From Dehalococcoidia bacterium (GTDB lineage: Bacteria > Chloroflexota > Dehalococcoidia > GIF9 > AB-539-J10), in NCBI GenBank assembly GCA_034414555.1, contig DAOUMA010000008.1:11039-75038 (forward strand): DNA of 64,000 nt, written 5' to 3'. The stretch's first letter is position 1; every line of letters begins with the position of its first letter. A program made the position numbers and the translations under genes. This document shows, piece after piece, positions 2,088 to 46,951 of this stretch. The notes under the pieces are model-generated. The model was not told the origin of the DNA. It saw only the letters and a program-made list of their open reading frames with translations, and searched no databases.

Positions 2088-4214
2088 ATGAACACAAAAA
2101 TAATTCCAGGAAAGCCATATCCTTTGGGAGCCACCTGGGATGGGGAAGGCGTCAACTTCGCCATCTATTCGGAGGCAGCCGAAAAGGTAGAACTCTGTTT
2201 TTTCAATAATACCGAGTCAAGGAGTCGGCAAGAATGTATCACCCTTCGTGAAGTCACCGGTCACGTCTGGCATGGCTACTTGCCTGGAATTAGACCCCGG
2301 CAACTGTATGGTTACCGCGTTCATGGACCGTACAAGCCAGAGGATGGCCTCAGGTTCAACCCTGCCAAACTCTTGATTGACCCCTACGCCAAAGCTATTT
2401 GTGGACGTGTGAACTGGGAGGCTCCGGTATTTGGCTATCAGATTGGAAACAAGGAAGGTGACCTTTCTCGTGACGACCAAGACGATGCCTGGGGCATGCC
2501 GAAATGCGTTGTGATTAATCCTTCGTTCGACTGGGAGGAAGACCGCCCGCCTCATATAGCGTGGAATGACACGATTATATATGAAGTCCACGTGAAGGGT
2601 TTTACGGCCCGTCACCCAGGTGTACCCGCTGATGAGCGCGGCACCTATGCGGGACTGGTATCCGAGCCGGCTATGGAATATCTCAGGAGCCTGGGAATAA
2701 CCTCGGTGGAATTATTGCCGGTGCATGACTTCCTAGATGATAAATACCTGGTTGGTAAAGGCTTGAAAAACTACTGGGGTTATGATACCACAAACTTCTT
2801 TTCTCCAGCAGCGCTGTACTCCAGTTCCGGAGATAGCGGGGGACAGGTCACTGAGTTCAAGCAGATGGTAAAGGCTCTCCACAAGCAAGGAATCGAGGTC
2901 ATCCTCGATGTCGTATACAACCATACTTCGGAAGGAAATCAGCTTGGTCCTACAATCAGTTTCCGTGGTATTGATAATCTCACTTATTATCGTCTCGTTG
3001 AAAAAGACAAGCGGTACTACATGGATTATACCGGAACCGGGAATAGCCCGAACATGCGTCATCCGCAGATGCTTCAGCTTATCATGGATAGCCTCAGATA
3101 TTGGGTATTGGAAATGCACGTTGATGGCTTTCGATTCGACCTAGCGGCGACATTGGCCAGAGAACTCCACGACGTTGACCGCCTCTCCTCCTTCTTTGAC
3201 ATCATTCATCAGGACCCGGTAATCTCTCAGGTCAAACTAATAGCCGAGCCTTGGGATGTTGGCGAGGGAGGCTATCAGGTGGGTAACTTCCCGGTGCTAT
3301 GGACCGAGTGGAACGGCAAGTACCGTGATGCCATACGCAGGTTCTGGCGGGGAGATGAAGGTGAAGTAGGGCAGTTCGCTTACCGCTTCTCAGGCAGCAG
3401 CGACCTATATGAACGGAGCGGGCGCAAACCATACGCGAGCATTAATTTCATCACAGCCCATGACGGGTTCACCCTCCATGACCTGGTCAGCTACAACCAA
3501 AAGCATAACGAGGCCAATGGTGAGAATAACAAAGACGGCACTAACGAAAACATCCCCTGGAACTGTGGTGCGGAAGGGCCAACTGATAATACCGGCATCA
3601 TTCAACTGAGGGAACGGCAGAAGCGTAACTTTTTTGCTACTTTACTCCTATCTCAAGGCGTGCCCATGCTCTGCGGCGGTGATGAAATCAGCCGCAGTCA
3701 GAAGGGAAACAACAACGCTTACTGCCAGGACAGCGAATTAAGTTGGCATGATTGGCAATTAGATGAGAATAGGAAGAAAATGCTCGCGTTTGTCAAACGT
3801 CTCACACATCTTAGATCCGAGCATCCCGGGTTGAGGAGGAGAAAGTTCTTCCAGGGGCGGCCAATCAGGGGCTCCGGGATAAAAGACATCACGTGGTTGA
3901 GACCTGACGGGCAAGAAATGTCTGATGACGACTGGAAGGCCTCATGGATTCGCTGCATCGGTATCTTCCTGGAGGGTGAAATGTCGGATGAAGTCGACGA
4001 GAACGGGAATCCTCTGGTTGATAACTCTCTCTTTGTCTTGTTCAACTCTCATCATGATTCGGTTCAATTCAAAGTACCTGAAATGAAGGCTAAGTGGGAG
4101 GTTGAAGTCGATACTGGTAATCCAGACCTTAGACTTGGCCAAAAGACGGTAAGTGCAGGCGAGACAATAGTAGTAACGGGCCGGTCTGTTGTTCTGCTAA
4201 AAGACACATCATAG
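2088..4214 (+). CDS. glgX: Glycogen debranching enzyme GlgX (GH13)
   Basis: N-terminus [29 protein letters not shown] is classic GlgX. GH13 catalytic regions DGFRFDLA and EPWD are present. GGAGG RBS lies 7 nt upstream of the ATG at 2088, so the ORF-track start at 2025 is probably an upstream extension. Confidence 0.85.
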
Positions 4215-4311: not shown

Positions 4312-4407
4312 GTCATTGCGAGCCGGAGGCATGGCAATCTTTGTTCCAAGCGAAAGCGAGGAATCTCGCTTTGAGATTGCTTCGTCGTTAACACTCCTCG
4401 CAATGAC
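4312..4407. repeat. Compound palindromic repeat element, copy A (GTCATTGCGAGC ... GATTGCTTCG ... CTCGCAATGAC)
   Basis: 11-bp perfect outer inverted repeat gtcattgcgag/ctcgcaatgac encloses inner hairpins (aaagcgag-gaat-ctcgcttt). The same motif recurs at 44378-44412 and 45439-45488. Confidence 0.5.
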
Positions 4408-15677: not shown

Positions 15678-16893
15678 GATGATTGAATTTGAGCATATAA
15701 AAAAACTGTCACACTCATCTCCCTCCAAGATAGTGTTCTTGGTAATAGATGGCGTGGGGGGATTACCCCATCCCCGAACTGGTAAGACAGAGTTAGAATC
15801 AGCAAAAAAACCTAACCTGGATGAACTGGCCCGGAAATCGCTTTGCGGACTCATTGACCCAGTAAGCCCCGGAATTACCCCTGGTAGCACGCCGGGGCAT
15901 CTAGCACTCTTCGGATACGACCCTATTAAATATAATATCGGGAGAGGAATCACCGAAGCGATTGGAATAGATTTAGCACTAAAGAAAAGCGATGTCGCCG
16001 CCCGGGGTAATTTCTGCACCGTTGATGAGCAAGGAATTGTTGTTGATAGAAGGGCAGGGCGGATTTCTACCGAAGAAAATACTAAATTATGTCAATTATT
16101 AAAAGAGATTAGTTTCCCTGAAATTGAAATTATAGTATCTCCGGTGAAGGAACATAGATTCGTGCTCATTTTTCGAGGCGATGGGTTATCTCCCCAATTA
16201 ACCGATTCCGACCCCCAACAAACAGGATTAGCCCCCAAGAAGGTAGAGGCATTGTCCACGAAGGCAGAAAAAATGGCGGAGATTGCCAATAAATTCGTAC
16301 ACCAAGCCGCGAGATTGCTTCGCTCTCCCAATAACGTCTCCCCGGCCAACATGGTGTTATTGCGTGGATTTTCCCGCTATCCCGATATACCTTCCATGCC
16401 CGAGATCTATAAGTTAAAACCCGCGGCCATCGCGATATACCCCATGTATCGAGGTTTAGCTAAACTAGTAGGAATGAAGGTGCTTCACTCAGGAAACAAC
16501 ATAACAGACCAGCTAGAAAGCCTGCGCCGTAATTATAAAAAATTCGACTTCTTCTTCATCCATTTTAAGGCAACAGACTCCAGAGGAGAGGATGGGAACT
16601 TCGAGGCTAAAGTCCAGGCTATTGAGGAAGTTGATGCTGCGCTTCCCCTGTTGCTCAAATTAGAGCCCGATGTTCTAATTATAACTGGAGACCATTCCAC
16701 ACCAGCAGCCTTAGCCATGCATAGCTGGCATCCCGTCCCTTTCATGCTCCACTCTAAATGGTGTCGCCCTGATAGAGTGACCGAATTCTCAGAGCAAGCC
16801 TGCCTTGCTGGTGGCCTGGGAAGGTTCCCCGCTATAGAAATCATGCCGTTAGCTATGGCAAACGCTCTAAAATTAGACAAATTTGGTGCTTGA
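15678..16893 (+). CDS. apgM: 2,3-bisphosphoglycerate-independent phosphoglycerate mutase, archaeal type (ApgM)
   Basis: MIEFEHIKKLS...KIVFLVIDGVGG...KTELESAKKPNLDELA is the ApgM N-terminal signature. The 5' extension to 15514 in the ORF track overlaps the divergent ROK gene and is rejected. Confidence 0.8.
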
Positions 16894-44377: not shown

Positions 44378-44412
44378 GTCATTGCTTCGTCGCTATCACC
44401 CCTCGCAATGAC
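44378..44412. repeat. Palindromic repeat element, short copy B (GTCATTGCTTCGTCGCT ... CTCGCAATGAC)
   Basis: Same outer half-sites as copy A at 4312-4407. Confidence 0.45.
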
Positions 44413-44473: not shown

Positions 44474-44857
44474 ATGCCAGTTTACGAATACCGTTGTAAT
44501 TCTTGCCACCGTAAGGTTAGTTTATATCACCCCAAGTTTTCTTCAGATATCCCTGGTTGCCCTCACTGCGGGGGTGAGCTTAAGCGAATATTTTCCACTT
44601 TCGCTATGCATAAGACCGGCGAGGATGTTTATGACGATATACTTTCTGACCAGAACTTGACTGAAGGAATGATGCGAAATGACCCCCGAGCTTTAATTGA
44701 GTGGAACAAGCGAATGACTGGTGGTGAAGAAGTCCCCCCTGATTATGAGGAGATAACGGAAAGAATGGAGAGGGGGGAGTGGCCTGTTGAGCAAATCGAG
44801 CAAAAGAGAAGAGAGGTAATGGACTTGCCCGAGCCACCAAAGAAAGGAGAGGATTAA
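44474..44857 (+). CDS. FmdB-family zinc-ribbon protein
   Basis: MPVYEYRCNSCH ... CPHCGG is the FmdB signature (MPxYEYxCxxCG). Acidic C-terminal tail. Confidence 0.6.
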   Translation: MPVYEYRCNSCHRKVSLYHPKFSSDIPGCPHCGGELKRIFSTFAMHKTGEDVYDDILSDQNLTEGMMRNDPRALIEWNKRMTGGEEVPPDYEEITERMERGEWPVEQIEQKRREVMDLPEPPKKGED

Positions 44858-44869
44858 CAAGGAGGCAAG

Positions 44870-45244
44870 GTGCCAATCTATGAATTTATCTGCCAAGATT
44901 GCCATAAAAAGACCAGCGTTCTGGTAAGGAGTGTCTCGGAGTCTGTTACCCTTGCCTGTCACTTTTGCGGCAGTGCTAGTTTATCCCGTACCGTATCAAG
45001 TTTCGCTTATCACAAGTCACTACAAACTGTATGGGAGGAGAGTGGCGAGCCGTCATCGCATCCCAGCGATGATTATTACAAAGACCCTCGCAATATCGGT
45101 CGCTGGGCGGAGAAAAAGTTCCAAGAAATGGGTGAAGAGATGCCTTCCCAGCTTAAGGAGGAAATACAGGCAGCCCGAGAAGGTGTGATGCCCGAGCCGC
45201 TGAAGGATTTGCAGAATGCCTCACCAACCGCTTCGTATAGTTGA
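44870..45244 (+). CDS. FmdB-family zinc-ribbon protein (tandem paralogue)
   Basis: MPIYEFICQDCH ... CHFCGS. GTG start with AAGGAGG RBS. Acidic tail. Confidence 0.6.
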   Translation: MPIYEFICQDCHKKTSVLVRSVSESVTLACHFCGSASLSRTVSSFAYHKSLQTVWEESGEPSSHPSDDYYKDPRNIGRWAEKKFQEMGEEMPSQLKEEIQAAREGVMPEPLKDLQNASPTASYS

Positions 45245-46349
45245 TGCCAACCTTAACCGCTCTGCTGAAGGGTTGCGCGTTCTGGAAGATGTTGCCCGCT
45301 TCGTTCTAAATGACGCCGCATTGAGCCAGCAGTTAAGGACTATCCGTCACAATCTGGCCGATGCCGGCAGGTCACTGGGCGTAATTCTTCTGGAGGAAAG
45401 GGACTCGGAACACGATGTCGGCATTAGCAAAGAAAATGCCATTGCGAGCCCCTCCTCTGTCATTGCGAGCCGAAGGCGAAGCAATCTCAAGGAAGCAAAG
45501 CAGTCCTACCCCGATTTAATTAGCCTAGTCGAAGCCAATGCTAACAGGGTGGAGGAGTCGCTGCGGGTGTTGGAGGAACTGGCCAAGTTAGCAGGGTTAA
45601 GCTCCAGGCTGGATGCGGTGAAATTCGAGCAGGCGAGGTTCAGCCTTTATTCGGCGGAAAAAGCGATGGTGGCTAAGCTAACACGGCAGGATAAGGTAAA
45701 ACAGTTGCCCGGGCTTTATGTCATTCTGGACAGGCAGGCTCTGGCTGGCAGGGACGAACTGGAGGTAGCTGGCGAGATTGTTCAAGGAGGGGCCAGGGTT
45801 ATCCAGCTCCGGGATAAACGGAGCTACAAGGGGGAATTGCTGCCTATTGCCCAAGGGCTTAAGGAGTTATGTGCAAAGTCAGGCGTTTTATTCATCGTCA
45901 ACGACTATCTTGATTTAGCACTGGCAGTTGATGCTGATGGTCTCCATCTGGGGCAGAAAGATTTGCCGGTTCATATTGCCCGGAGAGAATTGCCCATCGA
46001 TAAAATAATTGGCAGCTCGGTTACCACGGTATCACGGGCGATCGAGATGAGGGATGAAGGGGCGGATTATATTTCCGTGGGAGTCATGTTCCCCACGAGA
46101 GGCAAAGAAGGGGTGGTGGTTGTTGGGCTGGATATGCTCCAGCAGGTCAAAAAGGCAATATCATCTCCACTGGTGGCTATCGGCGGCATTGATGAGAGTA
46201 ATGTTGGCGAGGTAATCGCTGCTGGTGCTGATTGTGTCGCTGTGATTAACGCCGTGTTAGGCAAACCGGATGTCCGCAAAGCCACCAGACAACTGGTCAG
46301 CCAGATAAAGAGAGCAAAAAGAAAATGCCAGGGTTATCAGACGAGTTAG
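45216..46349 (+). CDS. thiE: Thiamine-phosphate synthase with ~160-aa N-terminal extension
   Basis: C-terminal 215 aa are a ThiE TIM barrel (LYVILDRQ ... VIQLRDK ... GADYISVGVMFPT ... AIGGI). The N-terminal part contains two related helices (ANLNRSAEGLRVLEDVARF / ANANRVEESLRVLEELAKL) separated by a segment encoded by repeat copy C. Confidence 0.75.
   Translation: MPHQPLRIVDANLNRSAEGLRVLEDVARFVLNDAALSQQLRTIRHNLADAGRSLGVILLEERDSEHDVGISKENAIASPSSVIASRRRSNLKEAKQSYPDLISLVEANANRVEESLRVLEELAKLAGLSSRLDAVKFEQARFSLYSAEKAMVAKLTRQDKVKQLPGLYVILDRQALAGRDELEVAGEIVQGGARVIQLRDKRSYKGELLPIAQGLKELCAKSGVLFIVNDYLDLALAVDADGLHLGQKDLPVHIARRELPIDKIIGSSVTTVSRAIEMRDEGADYISVGVMFPTRGKEGVVVVGLDMLQQVKKAISSPLVAIGGIDESNVGEVIAAGADCVAVINAVLGKPDVRKATRQLVSQIKRAKRKCQGYQTS
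45439..45488. repeat. Palindromic repeat element copy C, embedded in-frame within thiE
   Basis: ccattgcgagcc ... gtcattgcgagccgaaggcgaagcaatctc translates as AIASPSSVIASRRRSNL in the thiE frame. Confidence 0.4.
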
Positions 46350-46951
46350 AAGCTATTGCCGCAAAGATTCGCTCCTACTTCACCGCTGAGGATGAAGCCC
46401 GGGAGAAGGCTTTGCGCCTCTGCCGCCAGATAATTCGCAATAGTGCCAATGCCATAAGGGCTGTTCATCGTCAGGAGCAGGATAAGGCAAGACAAATTCT
46501 TGACTCAACTTACAAATTGGTTCAGGAGATAAATGATAGCCTCAGTGACCATCCCGGTTTGCTCTATTCAGGATTCGTTCATGATGCTAAAAAGGAGTTT
46601 GCCGAAGGGAGCATCACCTTGGCTTTAATTGCCGGTGGCAAGCTTCCTGAACCTGAGACGGTAGGCGTTGATTACGCTGCCTATCTCAACGGACTTGGTG
46701 AGGCGGTGGGTGAATTGAGGCGCTATATATTGGATAGCATGAGGAGAGATGATTTCTCCCGCTGCGAGGAATTGCTAAACGCTATGGACGACGTTTATGG
46801 CACATTGATGACCATGGATTTCACCGAAATCATCACCCATGGCTTAAGACGAACTACAGATGCCATCCGGGGCATTATCGAGAGGACTCGTGGTGATGTG
46901 ACCATGGCTTTGCGGCAAAAGGAGCTGGAAGCAAAGCTGGGTAAACAGTAA
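46325..46951 (+). CDS. Translin-family protein
   Basis: All-alpha 208-aa protein. YLNGLGEAVGELRRYILDSM resembles the translin LLGLADLTGELMR core motif. Confidence 0.45.
   Translation: MPGLSDELEAIAAKIRSYFTAEDEAREKALRLCRQIIRNSANAIRAVHRQEQDKARQILDSTYKLVQEINDSLSDHPGLLYSGFVHDAKKEFAEGSITLALIAGGKLPEPETVGVDYAAYLNGLGEAVGELRRYILDSMRRDDFSRCEELLNAMDDVYGTLMTMDFTEIITHGLRRTTDAIRGIIERTRGDVTMALRQKELEAKLGKQ

Follow-up and report, generated by a model that had tools for sequence, protein, structure and literature searches.

We identified a short palindromic repeat within the coding sequence of a thiamine biosynthesis enzyme. We estimate a probability of roughly 0.8 that a REP-like palindrome with a YGTC tag and a GNA triloop has colonised a ThiD2-ThiE coding sequence and is translated in a predicted disordered loop joining the two halves of ThiD2. 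Conservation and maintenance of the reading frame suggest that translation runs through the insert, which the enzyme appears to tolerate. Three features go beyond the first-pass annotation of this DNA. The insert appears to be nested in an earlier member of its own family, the loop carries a length-variable array, and the intact hairpin is better conserved than the surrounding gene. Coordinates in Table 1 refer to the window, the whole 64-kb stretch of DNA analyzed.

Table 1. Features of the thiD2-thiE gene and palindrome copies in the window.
Feature	Position	Strand	Details
thiD2-thiE fusion ORF	45216..46349	+	377 aa; stop codon included
ThiD2 domain	45234..45662	+	aa 7-149; Pfam PF17792, E 8e-32
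Disordered inter-repeat ThiD2 loop (predicted)	45417..45509	+	aa 68-98; pLDDT <50, sole low-confidence internal segment
One 21-nt (7-codon) unit	45438..45458	+	orphan 5' arm and spacer; encodes AIASPSS
Intact 30-nt palindromic element	45459..45488	+	GTCATTGCGAGCCGAAGGCGAAGCAATCTC; encodes VIASRRRSNL, codons V82-L91
Decayed 3' arm of older copy	45492..45506	+	GAAGCAAAGCAGTCC (canonical GAAGCGAAGCAATCT); encodes EAKQS
TMP-TENI (thiamine-phosphate synthase) TIM-barrel domain	45714..46256	+	aa 167-347; Pfam PF02581, E 1e-56
Intergenic inverted doublet	4312..4407	.	copies 4312-4340 (+) and 4373-4407 (-)
Intergenic family copy, upstream of Zn-ribbon genes	44378..44412	-	family match

The host gene is a predicted ThiD2-ThiE fusion

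The gene is predicted to encode a fusion of ThiD2 (HMP-phosphate kinase) and ThiE (thiamine-phosphate synthase). Its ATG lies inside the 3' part of the upstream Zn-ribbon ORF, with a 29 nt overlap, and an M/V-P-H-Q start is common to the window ORF and its orthologues in the alignment. The PF17792 match reaches 110.6 bits (gathering cutoff 23.5) and is followed by a PF02581 match of 191.2 bits (gathering cutoff 27), so both domains exceed their gathering scores in the order expected of a ThiD2-ThiE fusion. The ThiE part also matches PDB 1xi3 (E 3e-44), and the ThiD2 plus TMP-TENI architecture was found in 120/120 listed homologues, of 7713 scoring E <= 1e-20. Thamm and colleagues are said to have found in 2017 that ThiD2 is often fused to ThiE. 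The window protein has the same two domains in the same order as such fusions, in which the known ThiD2 is a strictly monofunctional HMP-phosphate kinase, the function reported for it in PMC12345177.

The N-terminal region had been described as an unusual extension built from two similar segments. The similarity is real (aa 1-69 and aa 96-163 share 40% identity over 43 aa by BLASTP, E 3e-07), but the segments correspond to the halves of a known domain, ThiD2, and do not form an unexplained extension. In the AlphaFold model, ThiD2 of the window ORF consists of four helices (aa 3-30, 34-60, 101-123, and 134-162; pLDDT >90) arranged as two homologous helical hairpins, and the repeat-bearing loop interrupts the domain. 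Invariant residues flank the insert on both sides (D10, N12, N14, R15, E18, and R21 before it; A107, N108, A109, R111, S115, and R117 after it). The mean pLDDT of the whole protein is 84.7, and values below 50 occur only in the loop and over the final 4 residues. As the ThiD2 part has no sequence match among solved structures, the loop position comes from the AlphaFold model.

Because the Pfam match covers nearly the full profile (positions 1-123 of 124), about 20 extra residues must lie within ThiD2. These set the window clade apart from the Pfam profile and are repeat-derived. Among the 120 listed homologues the loop is hypervariable, ranging from 17 to 59 aa. The loop is predicted to be unstructured and is length-tolerant, and the half-domains on either side of it are conserved.

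Repeat-derived DNA in the loop

The element in thiD2-thiE is a bona fide member of a palindrome family and lies in frame, as previously annotated. It has no stop codon in the thiE frame, and 0.00 chance occurrences of its two-arm pattern are expected in the window. A preceding T gives the copy a TGTC tag, and the hairpin comprises an outer stem (ATTGC/GCAAT), an inner stem (GCC/GGC), and a GAA triloop. The adjoining 21-nt unit consists of an orphan 5' arm, GCCATTGCGAGCC (45438-45450; 12/13 identical), and a pyrimidine-rich spacer, CCTCCTCT (45451-45458). On the other side of the hairpin, the EAKQS of the decayed arm is in register with the EAKQS of outgroup proteins, as its spacing to the downstream D-L is equal. 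The first-pass annotation had equated some 35 codons exactly with the repeat. This holds for codons 75-97 (45438-45506), of which the intact hairpin makes up 10; the beginning of the stretch, DSEHDVGISKEN, derives instead from conserved ThiD2 sequence or from the ancestral linker.

Taken alone, the thiE hairpin is of unremarkable stability (-4.5 kcal/mol, z -1.5), and versions with flanking sequence have z of about 0. Given this weak single-hairpin energy, the structural argument stands on covariation across the family. GNA triloops may be underrated by the nearest-neighbour model, according to PMC13037366. A tandem-repeat search (TRF) of the window, where a single 21-nt unit is present, returned nothing. 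No Rfam family reached its gathering score across the whole window, and the insert region gave only a meaningless match (E 3.2).

The palindrome family in the window and beyond

Four copies of the 30-nt unit occur in the 64-kb window and others in its relatives, the distribution of a dispersed short palindrome. The intergenic doublet folds into a single long hairpin (DNA fold -23.8 kcal/mol, z -3.98). The closest relative, L003, has a composite of about 200 nt (from 1961) at the site of the window copy upstream of the Zn-ribbon genes, and the window copy is a collapsed form of it. The thiE element shares its loop variant, CGAAGGC, with copies that lie between genes in relatives (L003 at 1961, L128 at 20458, and L130 at 557). 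We also considered an exact 13-mer in the phosphoglycerate mutase gene (16311-16323) as a second intragenic copy and rejected it, as the segment aligns insertion-free to P. horikoshii ApgM.

At least 120 family loci were found in other genomes. Among the matches listed, the family spans many phyla with near-identical arms, including Chloroflexota, Patescibacteria, and Omnitrophota. A YGTC tag precedes 125/140 copies (TGTC in 82, CGTC in 43), and 93/140 have an inverted partner at most 250 nt away. Apical loops are triloops in 100/130 cases, mostly GNA, and 27/46 long loops have compensatory inner stems of at least 3 bp, compared with 1.7 in shuffles. The family tail is CTC, and bases beyond it are not conserved. 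Copies in frame are also present in other protein genes, for LeuRS in a Parcubacteria MAG and for PurH in an Anaerolineae MAG. Literature searches with the family's DNA words and encoded peptides gave nothing relevant, and the CGTC/GTAG REP catalogue (PMC3733652) does not list the family in its supplementary tables.

The loop varies in frame among orthologues

Comparing orthologues, as the first-pass annotation had proposed, revealed that the repeat codons vary in number or are absent, with ThiD2 retained in all listed homologues. The 21-nt unit is present in 0, 1, 2, 3, or 4 copies, and this range is seen even between near-identical strains. One locus, L002, gives a TRF period of 21 with 4.1 copies, and close orthologues have fewer units or are repeat-free (P0005, P0027, and P0030). 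An in-frame tandem unit whose number varies between close relatives constitutes a coding minisatellite (VNTR). Across more than 30 orthologous loci, all length differences in the loop DNA are multiples of three, with 21-nt multiples among them, and no frame-breaking variant was found. Together with the low pLDDT of the loop and the repeat-free orthologues, this supports the earlier suggestion of a tolerated in-frame linker insertion.

The element has also been exchanged and removed. L127 carries a different hairpin subtype that is 5 nt longer, offset by +1 A, and read in a different frame. In L137 the element is completely lost and the gene is otherwise intact. P0030 and P0032 are repeat-free, yet they cluster with the repeat-bearing P0029 in 497/500 bootstraps (distance method) and retain the element's 3'-terminal AATCTC. 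Their nested position in the tree points to a clean loss. The deletion junction has AAT on both sides, which fits a target-site duplication and a microhomology-mediated deletion equally well. This AAT is the sole candidate duplication at thiE; doublets of the family end in GTCATTGCGAG...CTCGCAATGAC, features to be compared with the target-site duplications and terminal inverted repeats of MITEs.

Lineages of 57-64% identity carry an older, simpler copy, with VIASEAKQS-type peptides and DNA, or its relics, and such traces are widespread among them (P0052, P0074, P0087, P0098, L152, and L154). Other lineages have unrelated sequence or a second palindrome family in the same loop.

The intact hairpin is better conserved than its gene

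The intact hairpin is identical at 29-30 of 30 nt, third codon positions included, between lineages whose thiE genes share 80% nucleotide identity and whose third codon positions are 66-69% identical. The excess conservation has a P of about 1e-5 to 1e-4, based on few lineage comparisons that are non-independent within clades. This disparity points to gene conversion or to selection at the nucleotide level. We consider it most likely that the near-identity reflects homogenisation against other genomic copies, by gene conversion or re-copying, rather than a need for the peptide. The thiE copy of L135 carries an AA-to-TG variant typical of intergenic copies.

Selection on the nucleic acid itself would predict the same near-identity. 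The hairpin could be kept for a role in cis, such as pacing translation between the ThiD2 halves, stabilizing the transcript, or binding a host protein (gyrase or IHF binding has been proposed for REPs). Its conservation against third positions at about 67% identity fits such a role, as do the compensatory inner stems across family hairpins and the free decay of the orphan arms adjoining intact elements at orthologous loci. We nevertheless find it unlikely, because the gene is otherwise intact where the element has been lost completely (P0030, P0032, and L137) or survives only as decayed relics. Moreover, L127 has replaced its hairpin with another subtype in a different frame, the L135 variant fits conversion better than local selection, and the energy of the single hairpin is not exceptional. 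Selection could instead act on the peptide, if a basic, Ser/Ala/Pro-rich linker (VIASRRRSNL with a variable AIASPSS) had been exapted, for example for spacing or interaction of the ThiD2 halves or of kinase and synthase. VIASRRRSNL is indeed conserved in the window and P0008 clades, and the element site has been kept through about 25% protein divergence. Exaptation is nonetheless quite improbable for a segment that is predicted to be disordered, differs by up to four units between near-identical strains, is missing from sister lineages, and is replaced by unrelated sequence or another palindrome family elsewhere. Protein-level selection also does not predict the conservation of synonymous positions.

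The first-pass annotation had offered, as an alternative, a true thiE start near LYVILDRQ. On that reading the repeat would lie in a leader that is not translated, or in another gene. Classical ThiE proteins (PDB 1xi3 and 2tps) do align only from aa 156-168 on. The region upstream of that point, however, is a Pfam domain that runs across the insert, belongs to a known kinase (PMC12345177), and accompanies TMP-TENI in every listed homologue. It is modeled with high confidence as four helices, has invariant residues before and after the insert, and contains no frame-breaking variant in more than 30 loci. As both ThiD2 halves are conserved, we reject the downstream start, which we regard as barely credible. 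The extended N-terminal part is a kinase domain, ThiD2, and the gene should therefore be annotated as thiD2-thiE with the upstream start.

A possible history of the insert

Colonisation of the coding sequence by the palindrome may have proceeded in four steps, in an order that is a parsimony reading of the alignments. The first would be the entry of an early copy of 28 nt, VIAS-E-AKQS in translation, into the loop in an ancestor shared by a wide Dehalococcoidia group. A later copy with a pyrimidine-rich leader (42 nt in total) would then have landed at the apical loop of the early one, between its arms, in the window clade's ancestor. The orphan 5' arm and spacer would subsequently have gained and lost copies in frame, as a minisatellite of 0-4 units of 21 nt. 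Finally, one lineage may have swapped the hairpin subtype and another lost all sequence between two AAT triplets. Similar patterns could also arise if copies inserted independently at a hot spot, or if a copy was duplicated and then converted.

A broader possibility, which we put forward tentatively and with some doubt, is that this YGTC-tagged family without a known transposase is pan-bacterial and still active, and that its copies are written preferentially into or beside existing copies through loop-nesting, homing, or frequent conversion. Such behavior would explain why older and newer arms are nested in thiE, why L127 swapped its subtype, and why the hairpin is conserved beyond its host enzyme. 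It would also explain why the layout of orphan arm, spacer, and intact element is shared with intergenic sites and other phyla.

Comparison with known palindromic repeats

Intragenic REPs (PMC3733652) and RPEs (PMC10969869) have been documented before, and the thiE case is a new example of this known phenomenon, in which selfish palindromes decorate proteins. The closest likeness is to the CGTC-tagged REPs (Di Nocera et al. 2013, PMC3733652). Both have an unpaired CGTC/TGTC tag (CCTC is allowed), a stem starting with A-T (ATT...AAT), and a short unpaired tail. Copies of both are scattered, lie mainly between genes, and often form inverted pairs, and some are in frame in genes for known proteins, tRNA synthetases included. 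No dedicated transposase is known for CGTC REPs either (PMC3733652). However, their continuous 8-9 bp stem contrasts with the 5 bp stem, G/A-rich internal loop, and 2-6 bp inner stem found here, and their 4-5 nt loop and CCA-like tail with a GNA triloop and CTC tail. The signatures ATTGCGAG, VIAS, AKQS, and ARND of the present family are absent from the text and tables of PMC3733652, and the five phyla listed there compare with a family found also in Chloroflexota, Patescibacteria, Omnitrophota, and others.

The RPEs (Ogata et al. 2000, via PMC10969869 and PMC3733652) are in-frame palindromic selfish DNA in housekeeping genes, with fold and function apparently preserved. The thiE insert resembles them in being in frame, in more than 30 orthologues, and in a position predicted to be compatible with the fold, a disordered surface loop between conserved half-domains. 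It does not belong to their sequence families, as the host is Dehalococcoidia-type and the RPE/CGTC tables lack the peptide and DNA signatures of the element. Two RPE families, RPE-4 and RPE-6, do count among the CGTC REPs (PMC3733652). The classical RPE-1 measures about 150 bp and is confined to Rickettsia, whereas the present element has 30 nt and crosses phyla. The apparent nesting and probable nucleotide-level homogenisation at thiE, like its 21-nt minisatellite, are not among the RPE features described in PMC10969869 and PMC3733652. REPINs (Bertels and Rainey 2011, PMC3116915), which RAYT transposases of the Y1/HUH type mobilise, share the inverted doublets with a long hairpin, as at 4312-4407 and in the paired copies of the present family (93/140). 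In contrast, REPINs have a GTAG tag in place of YGTC and are mobile as an inverted REP pair, and at thiE there is a single hairpin next to orphan arms in direct orientation. They are also described as mostly vertically inherited within lineages, unlike the near-identical arms seen here across phyla.

REP-type palindromes thus decorate essential enzymes far beyond Rickettsia and Proteobacteria, in uncultured Dehalococcoidia, CPR, and Anaerolineae. Palindrome inserts enlarge and diversify loops in metagenome-derived proteins, which is relevant to annotation, domain boundaries, and structure prediction. The loop states at thiE are unusually complete (empty, single old copy, nested, 0-4 units, subtype swap, and deletion), and the series could be used for studying how elements without a known transposase are copied, homogenised, and removed. 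If copies are indeed written into or beside existing ones, the polymorphism of the thiE loop would serve as a natural reporter, through which metagenomic populations could reveal how the copying works.

Relatives carry a second palindrome family, CCTCTCCC...GGGAGAGG, at the 44.4-kb intergenic site, and no copy of it was found in the window.

Position of the insert in ThiD2-ThiE

The ORF that carries the repeat encodes a fusion of the HMP-phosphate kinase ThiD2 and the thiamine-phosphate synthase ThiE. ThiD2 was reportedly often found fused to ThiE in the original ThiD2 study of Thamm et al. (2017). The ThiD2 match spans 143 residues and covers profile positions 1-123 of 124 in Pfam, indicating about 20 extra residues within the domain. 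Solved thiamine-phosphate synthases align to the ThiE part from aa 156-168 on (1xi3, E 3e-44), and a sequence search of solved structures gave no match for the ThiD2 part. ThiD2 is described as phosphorylating HMP monophosphate and not HMP (PMC12345177).

Features of the thiD2-thiE locus and copies of the repeat family in the window
Feature	Position	Strand	Description
thiD2-thiE ORF	45216-46349	+	377 aa
ThiD2 domain	aa 7-149		PF17792, E 8e-32, above curated cutoff (Pfam)
TMP-TENI domain	aa 167-347		PF02581, E 1e-56, above curated cutoff (Pfam)
ThiD2 duplicated helical hairpin	45216-45704		(D/E)AN-x-NR-x-x-E-x-LRVLE(D/E) conserved in both halves
Orphan 5' arm	45438-45450	+	GCCATTGCGAGCC, 12/13 match; with spacer encodes AIASPSS
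Pyrimidine-rich spacer	45451-45458	+	CCTCCTCT; with orphan 5' arm encodes AIASPSS
Intact element	45459-45488	+	GTCATTGCGAGCCGAAGGCGAAGCAATCTC; encodes VIASRRRSNL
Putative old 3' arm	45492-45506	+	GAAGCAAAGCAGTCC; encodes EAKQS; directly after intact element
Other family copy	4312-4340	+	intergenic
Other family copy	4373-4407	-	intergenic
Other family copy	44378-44412	-	intergenic, upstream of Zn-ribbon genes
Zn_ribbon_8 (FmdB-type) genes	44474-45244		two tandem paralogues; overlap thiD2-thiE by 29 nt
Translin-like gene	46325-46951		overlaps thiD2-thiE by 25 nt

The first-pass annotation had described an in-frame repeat between two similar N-terminal segments, and both observations hold. The segments are the two halves of ThiD2 (aa 6-48 versus aa 102-140: 40% identity, E 3e-07). 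In an AlphaFold2 model built with 103 homologues as input (mean pLDDT 84.7), ThiD2 forms four long helices (aa 3-30, 34-60, 101-123 and 134-162), followed by the TIM barrel. Internally, pLDDT falls below 50 only at aa 68-98, which is exactly the repeat-bearing loop.

The suggestion that thiE starts downstream of the repeat is not supported. Besides the four modeled helices, invariant ThiD2 residues lie on both sides of the insert (D10, N12, N14, R15, E18 and R21; A107, N108, A109, R111, S115 and R117), both Pfam domains are found in 120/120 homologues (the best 120 of 7713 scoring E <= 1e-20), and the window ORF has the M/V-P-H-Q start common to its orthologues. On these sequence and model predictions, a complete ThiD2 domain can be produced only by translation through the insert. 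The gene should be named thiD2-thiE, with the upstream start.

The order of Zn_ribbon_8 pair, thiD2-thiE and translin-like gene is kept in all relatives examined. No TPP riboswitch was detected near thiD2-thiE at the Rfam gathering score, and no Rfam family reached that score in the whole window (1-64000), with no tRNA, rRNA or riboswitch.

Variation among orthologous linkers

We compared linker DNA from 9 loci obtained by exact-protein look-up and 80 from a metagenome scan. Every linker of the window's clade and of the sister clade (74-97% identity) contains the intact 30-nt element, with a varying number of degenerate 21-nt units, (G/A)YC-RTT-GCG-AGC-CNC-CNN-TCT, in front of it. There are no units in L004 and L005, one in the window, L129, L131-L133 and L136, two in L003, L128, L130, L134, L135 and L138, three in L006 and four in L002 (TRF: period 21, 4.1 copies). 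All length differences between orthologous linkers are multiples of three, which, with the low-confidence loop, bears out the earlier reading of a tolerated in-frame insertion. The zero-unit state looks like recent recombination between arms, because L004 and L005 nest in clades whose other members carry units.

The locus L127 (protein P0029) keeps two old units and has a terminal hairpin of a different subtype, GTCATTCTGAGG...CGAAGAATCTC, with compensatory changes in the arms (ATTGC/GCAAT to ATTCT/AGAAT). This hairpin is 5 nt longer, and one additional A downstream restores the frame.

The proposed orthologue alignment also revealed repeat-less linkers, in L001 (P0030) and L137 (GAA AAT CTC CCC...). 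In a neighbour-joining tree of ThiD2-ThiE homologues with linker columns left out, repeat-less P0030 and P0032 cluster with repeat-bearing P0029 in 497/500 bootstraps. The gene order of L001 and L127 is alike (A24 peptidase upstream, 74-aa ORF downstream), in agreement with the tree, so the repeat-less state is most simply read as a loss. The repeat-less linker keeps AAT-CTC, the element's 3' end in the frame used in the window, and a deletion between two AAT triplets would leave this remnant.

Hairpin conservation

In comparisons of the window with the P0008 clade, thiE DNA is 80-81% identical (66-69% at third codon positions), and the 30-nt element is identical at 29-30/30 positions. From these few comparisons, some of them not independent, the binomial P is ~1e-5 to 1e-4 relative to third-position identity and 0.002-0.014 relative to overall identity. 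The orphan units beside the element have diverged much more. The thiE copy of L135 has GCGTGGCAATCT in place of GCGAAGCAATCT, a two-base variant that is also that of intergenic copies in three relatives (L003 at 1961, L128 at 20458 and L130 at 557). These patterns and the subtype swap in L127 favour homogenisation of the hairpin against other copies, by gene conversion or re-copying, and argue against selection on the peptide. A cis-acting nucleic-acid role is a less probable alternative.

A proposed layered history of the loop

Many homologues at 57-64% identity have a canonical family peptide at the same place in another frame (P0052 GVIASRAKQSQQDL, P0074 DVIASEAMQSQQDL, P0087 DIIASGAKQSQQNL, P0098 DVIAAEAKQARQDL). 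Their DNA contains a 28-nt form or its relics (L152 GTCAATGCGAACAAAGTGAAGCAATCTC, L154 GCCATTGCGAGTGAAGTGAAGCCATCTC); the ARMGASYEPETKQS group keeps CGAAGCAATCTC. The distance from EAKQS to the downstream D-L in the window is the same as in outgroups. We infer that the window's linker would be such an old copy, formed by the orphan 5' arm and the old 3' arm, with its arms now separated by a 42-nt block that entered at the apical loop position and consists of the spacer, the new hairpin and AAG. Alternatively, the layers could have come from repeated independent insertions at a hot spot, or from duplication followed by conversion.

Whichever history holds, the ThiD2 loop is a hot spot that has been colonised repeatedly. 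A second, unrelated palindrome family is inserted there in other Dehalococcoidia (L139, L140, L142, L158, L177 and others). Its full form (L139, L140) is ACCCTCACCC-TA-CCCTCTCCCT-CGA-AGGGAGAGGG-TT-TGGGTGAGGGT, read as TLTLPSPSKGEGLGEG. The core is CCCTCTCCCT-N3-AGGGAGAGGG with outer arms ACCCTCACCC/GGGTGAGGGT, read as LPSPSKGEGLGEG or LPSRER. Short forms, TCTCCCTTCAAGGGAGA, read as LPSRER, occur in a large HPY/HPH group.

Other copies in the window

The chance expectation for the two-arm pattern in the window is 0.00. The single hairpin in thiE (ATTGC/GCAAT plus GCC-GAA-GGC) has an unremarkable energy (-4.5 kcal/mol, z -1.5). The inverted doublet at 4312-4407 gives a single extended hairpin (-23.8 kcal/mol, z -3.98); it lies just 3' of an ORF ending at 4214 and has an extra internal palindrome, GCGAAAGCGAGGAATCTCGCTTTG. 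Compared with L003 (from 1961), the copy at 44378-44412 has a collapsed form. At this site the closest relatives (L003, L002, L004) have ~200 extra bases, with ends GTCATTGCGAG...CTCGCAATGAC, a composite that includes a second palindrome family (CCCTCTCCC...GGGAGAGGG, GGGTGAGGGTGAG) and is polymorphic for presence or absence among ~97% identical strains. An exact 3'-arm 13-mer, GCGAAGCAATCTC, at 16311-16323 (minus strand) in a cofactor-independent phosphoglycerate mutase gene was rejected as a chance match; the alignment to PDB 2zkt has no insertion there.

The repeat family and its relation to known REPs

A search for the exact arms, separated by any loop of 3-20 nt, in a single genome of each species identified at least 120 loci. 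The matches listed come from Chloroflexota, Thermodesulfobacteriota, Bacteroidota, Patescibacteria, Planctomycetota, Omnitrophota, Nitrospirota, Elusimicrobiota, Atribacterota, Cyanobacteria, Alpha-, Beta- and Gammaproteobacteria and Bacillota, including isolates (Sporomusa malonica, Litorivivens lipolytica, Chloroflexus islandicus, Sphingopyxis sp., Desulfotruncus alcoholivorax), and from one Halobacteria MAG. The archaeal match is one exact copy (L072 4666-4693) on a 428-kb contig labelled Halobacteria archaeon, and could be a real transfer or a binning error.

The commonest loop among the matches listed is GNAGC, giving a GC-GNA-GC core; GCGNAGC is reported as an unusually stable DNA mini-hairpin (PMC13037366). 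Apical triloops are found in 100/130 cases (74 of them GNA), and compensatory inner stems of at least 3 bp in 27/46 longer loops versus 1.7 in shuffles. The preceding base is T in 82/140 copies and C in 43/140, hence the YGTC tag, and 93/140 are paired with an inverted copy no more than 250 nt away.

CGTC-tagged REPs were defined by Di Nocera et al. (PMC3733652). Their tag is CGTC, in many repeats TGTC, with 8-9 bp stems starting with A-T pairs, 4-5 nt loops and a CCA tail; dimers are frequent, there is no dedicated transposase, and copies lie within genes of known proteins, including tRNA synthetases (PMC3733652). The family described here has the same tag, a stem that likewise starts with A-T pairs, a tendency to form dimers and copies within genes, but differs in its interrupted stem, triloop and tail, and its DNA and peptide signatures are not in the text or tables of PMC3733652. 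On this basis we regard it as related to, or a variant of, the CGTC-type REPs, outside the four catalogued families. Rickettsia conorii CGTC-1 and CGTC-4 correspond to RPE-6 and RPE-4 (PMC3733652), and RPEs are the classic palindromes in frame within functional genes (PMC10969869). The thiE insertion is thus a new example of a known phenomenon, REP- or RPE-decorated proteins. It goes beyond the textbook case in the probable layering of insertions at a single loop of the protein, the variation in length by in-frame 21-nt units, a hairpin conserved better than coding sequence, and the very broad taxonomic range of a family for which we found no description in the literature.

About a quarter of the copies among the matches listed lie within open stretches of at least 242 codons. 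Two cases checked, in MAG-encoded LeuRS from Parcubacteria (L096) and PurH from Anaerolineae (L109), are genuine in-frame inserts with Pfam domains on either side of the repeat peptide. Repeat-derived stretches occur at several points in LeuRS (L096 1023-3770, minus strand), among them VIASSERAKQSR...EIASSQAPRNDD and a CGTC-1-type VIPAQAGIQ, and PurH (L109 1393-3015, plus strand) has an inverted doublet, VIASGAKQS...EIASQTTLAMT.

An orphan 5' arm lies directly 5' of 12/140 intact copies (control 5), and an orphan 3' arm 3' of 2/140 (control 0). Orphan 5' arm, short spacer and intact element occur together in several phyla (L008 1372-1508 from Chloroflexus sp., L017, L027, L112, L118). L008 has direct arrays with a period of ~50 nt, and its CCTCCTCTCC spacer is of the CCTCCTCT type, like that of thiE.
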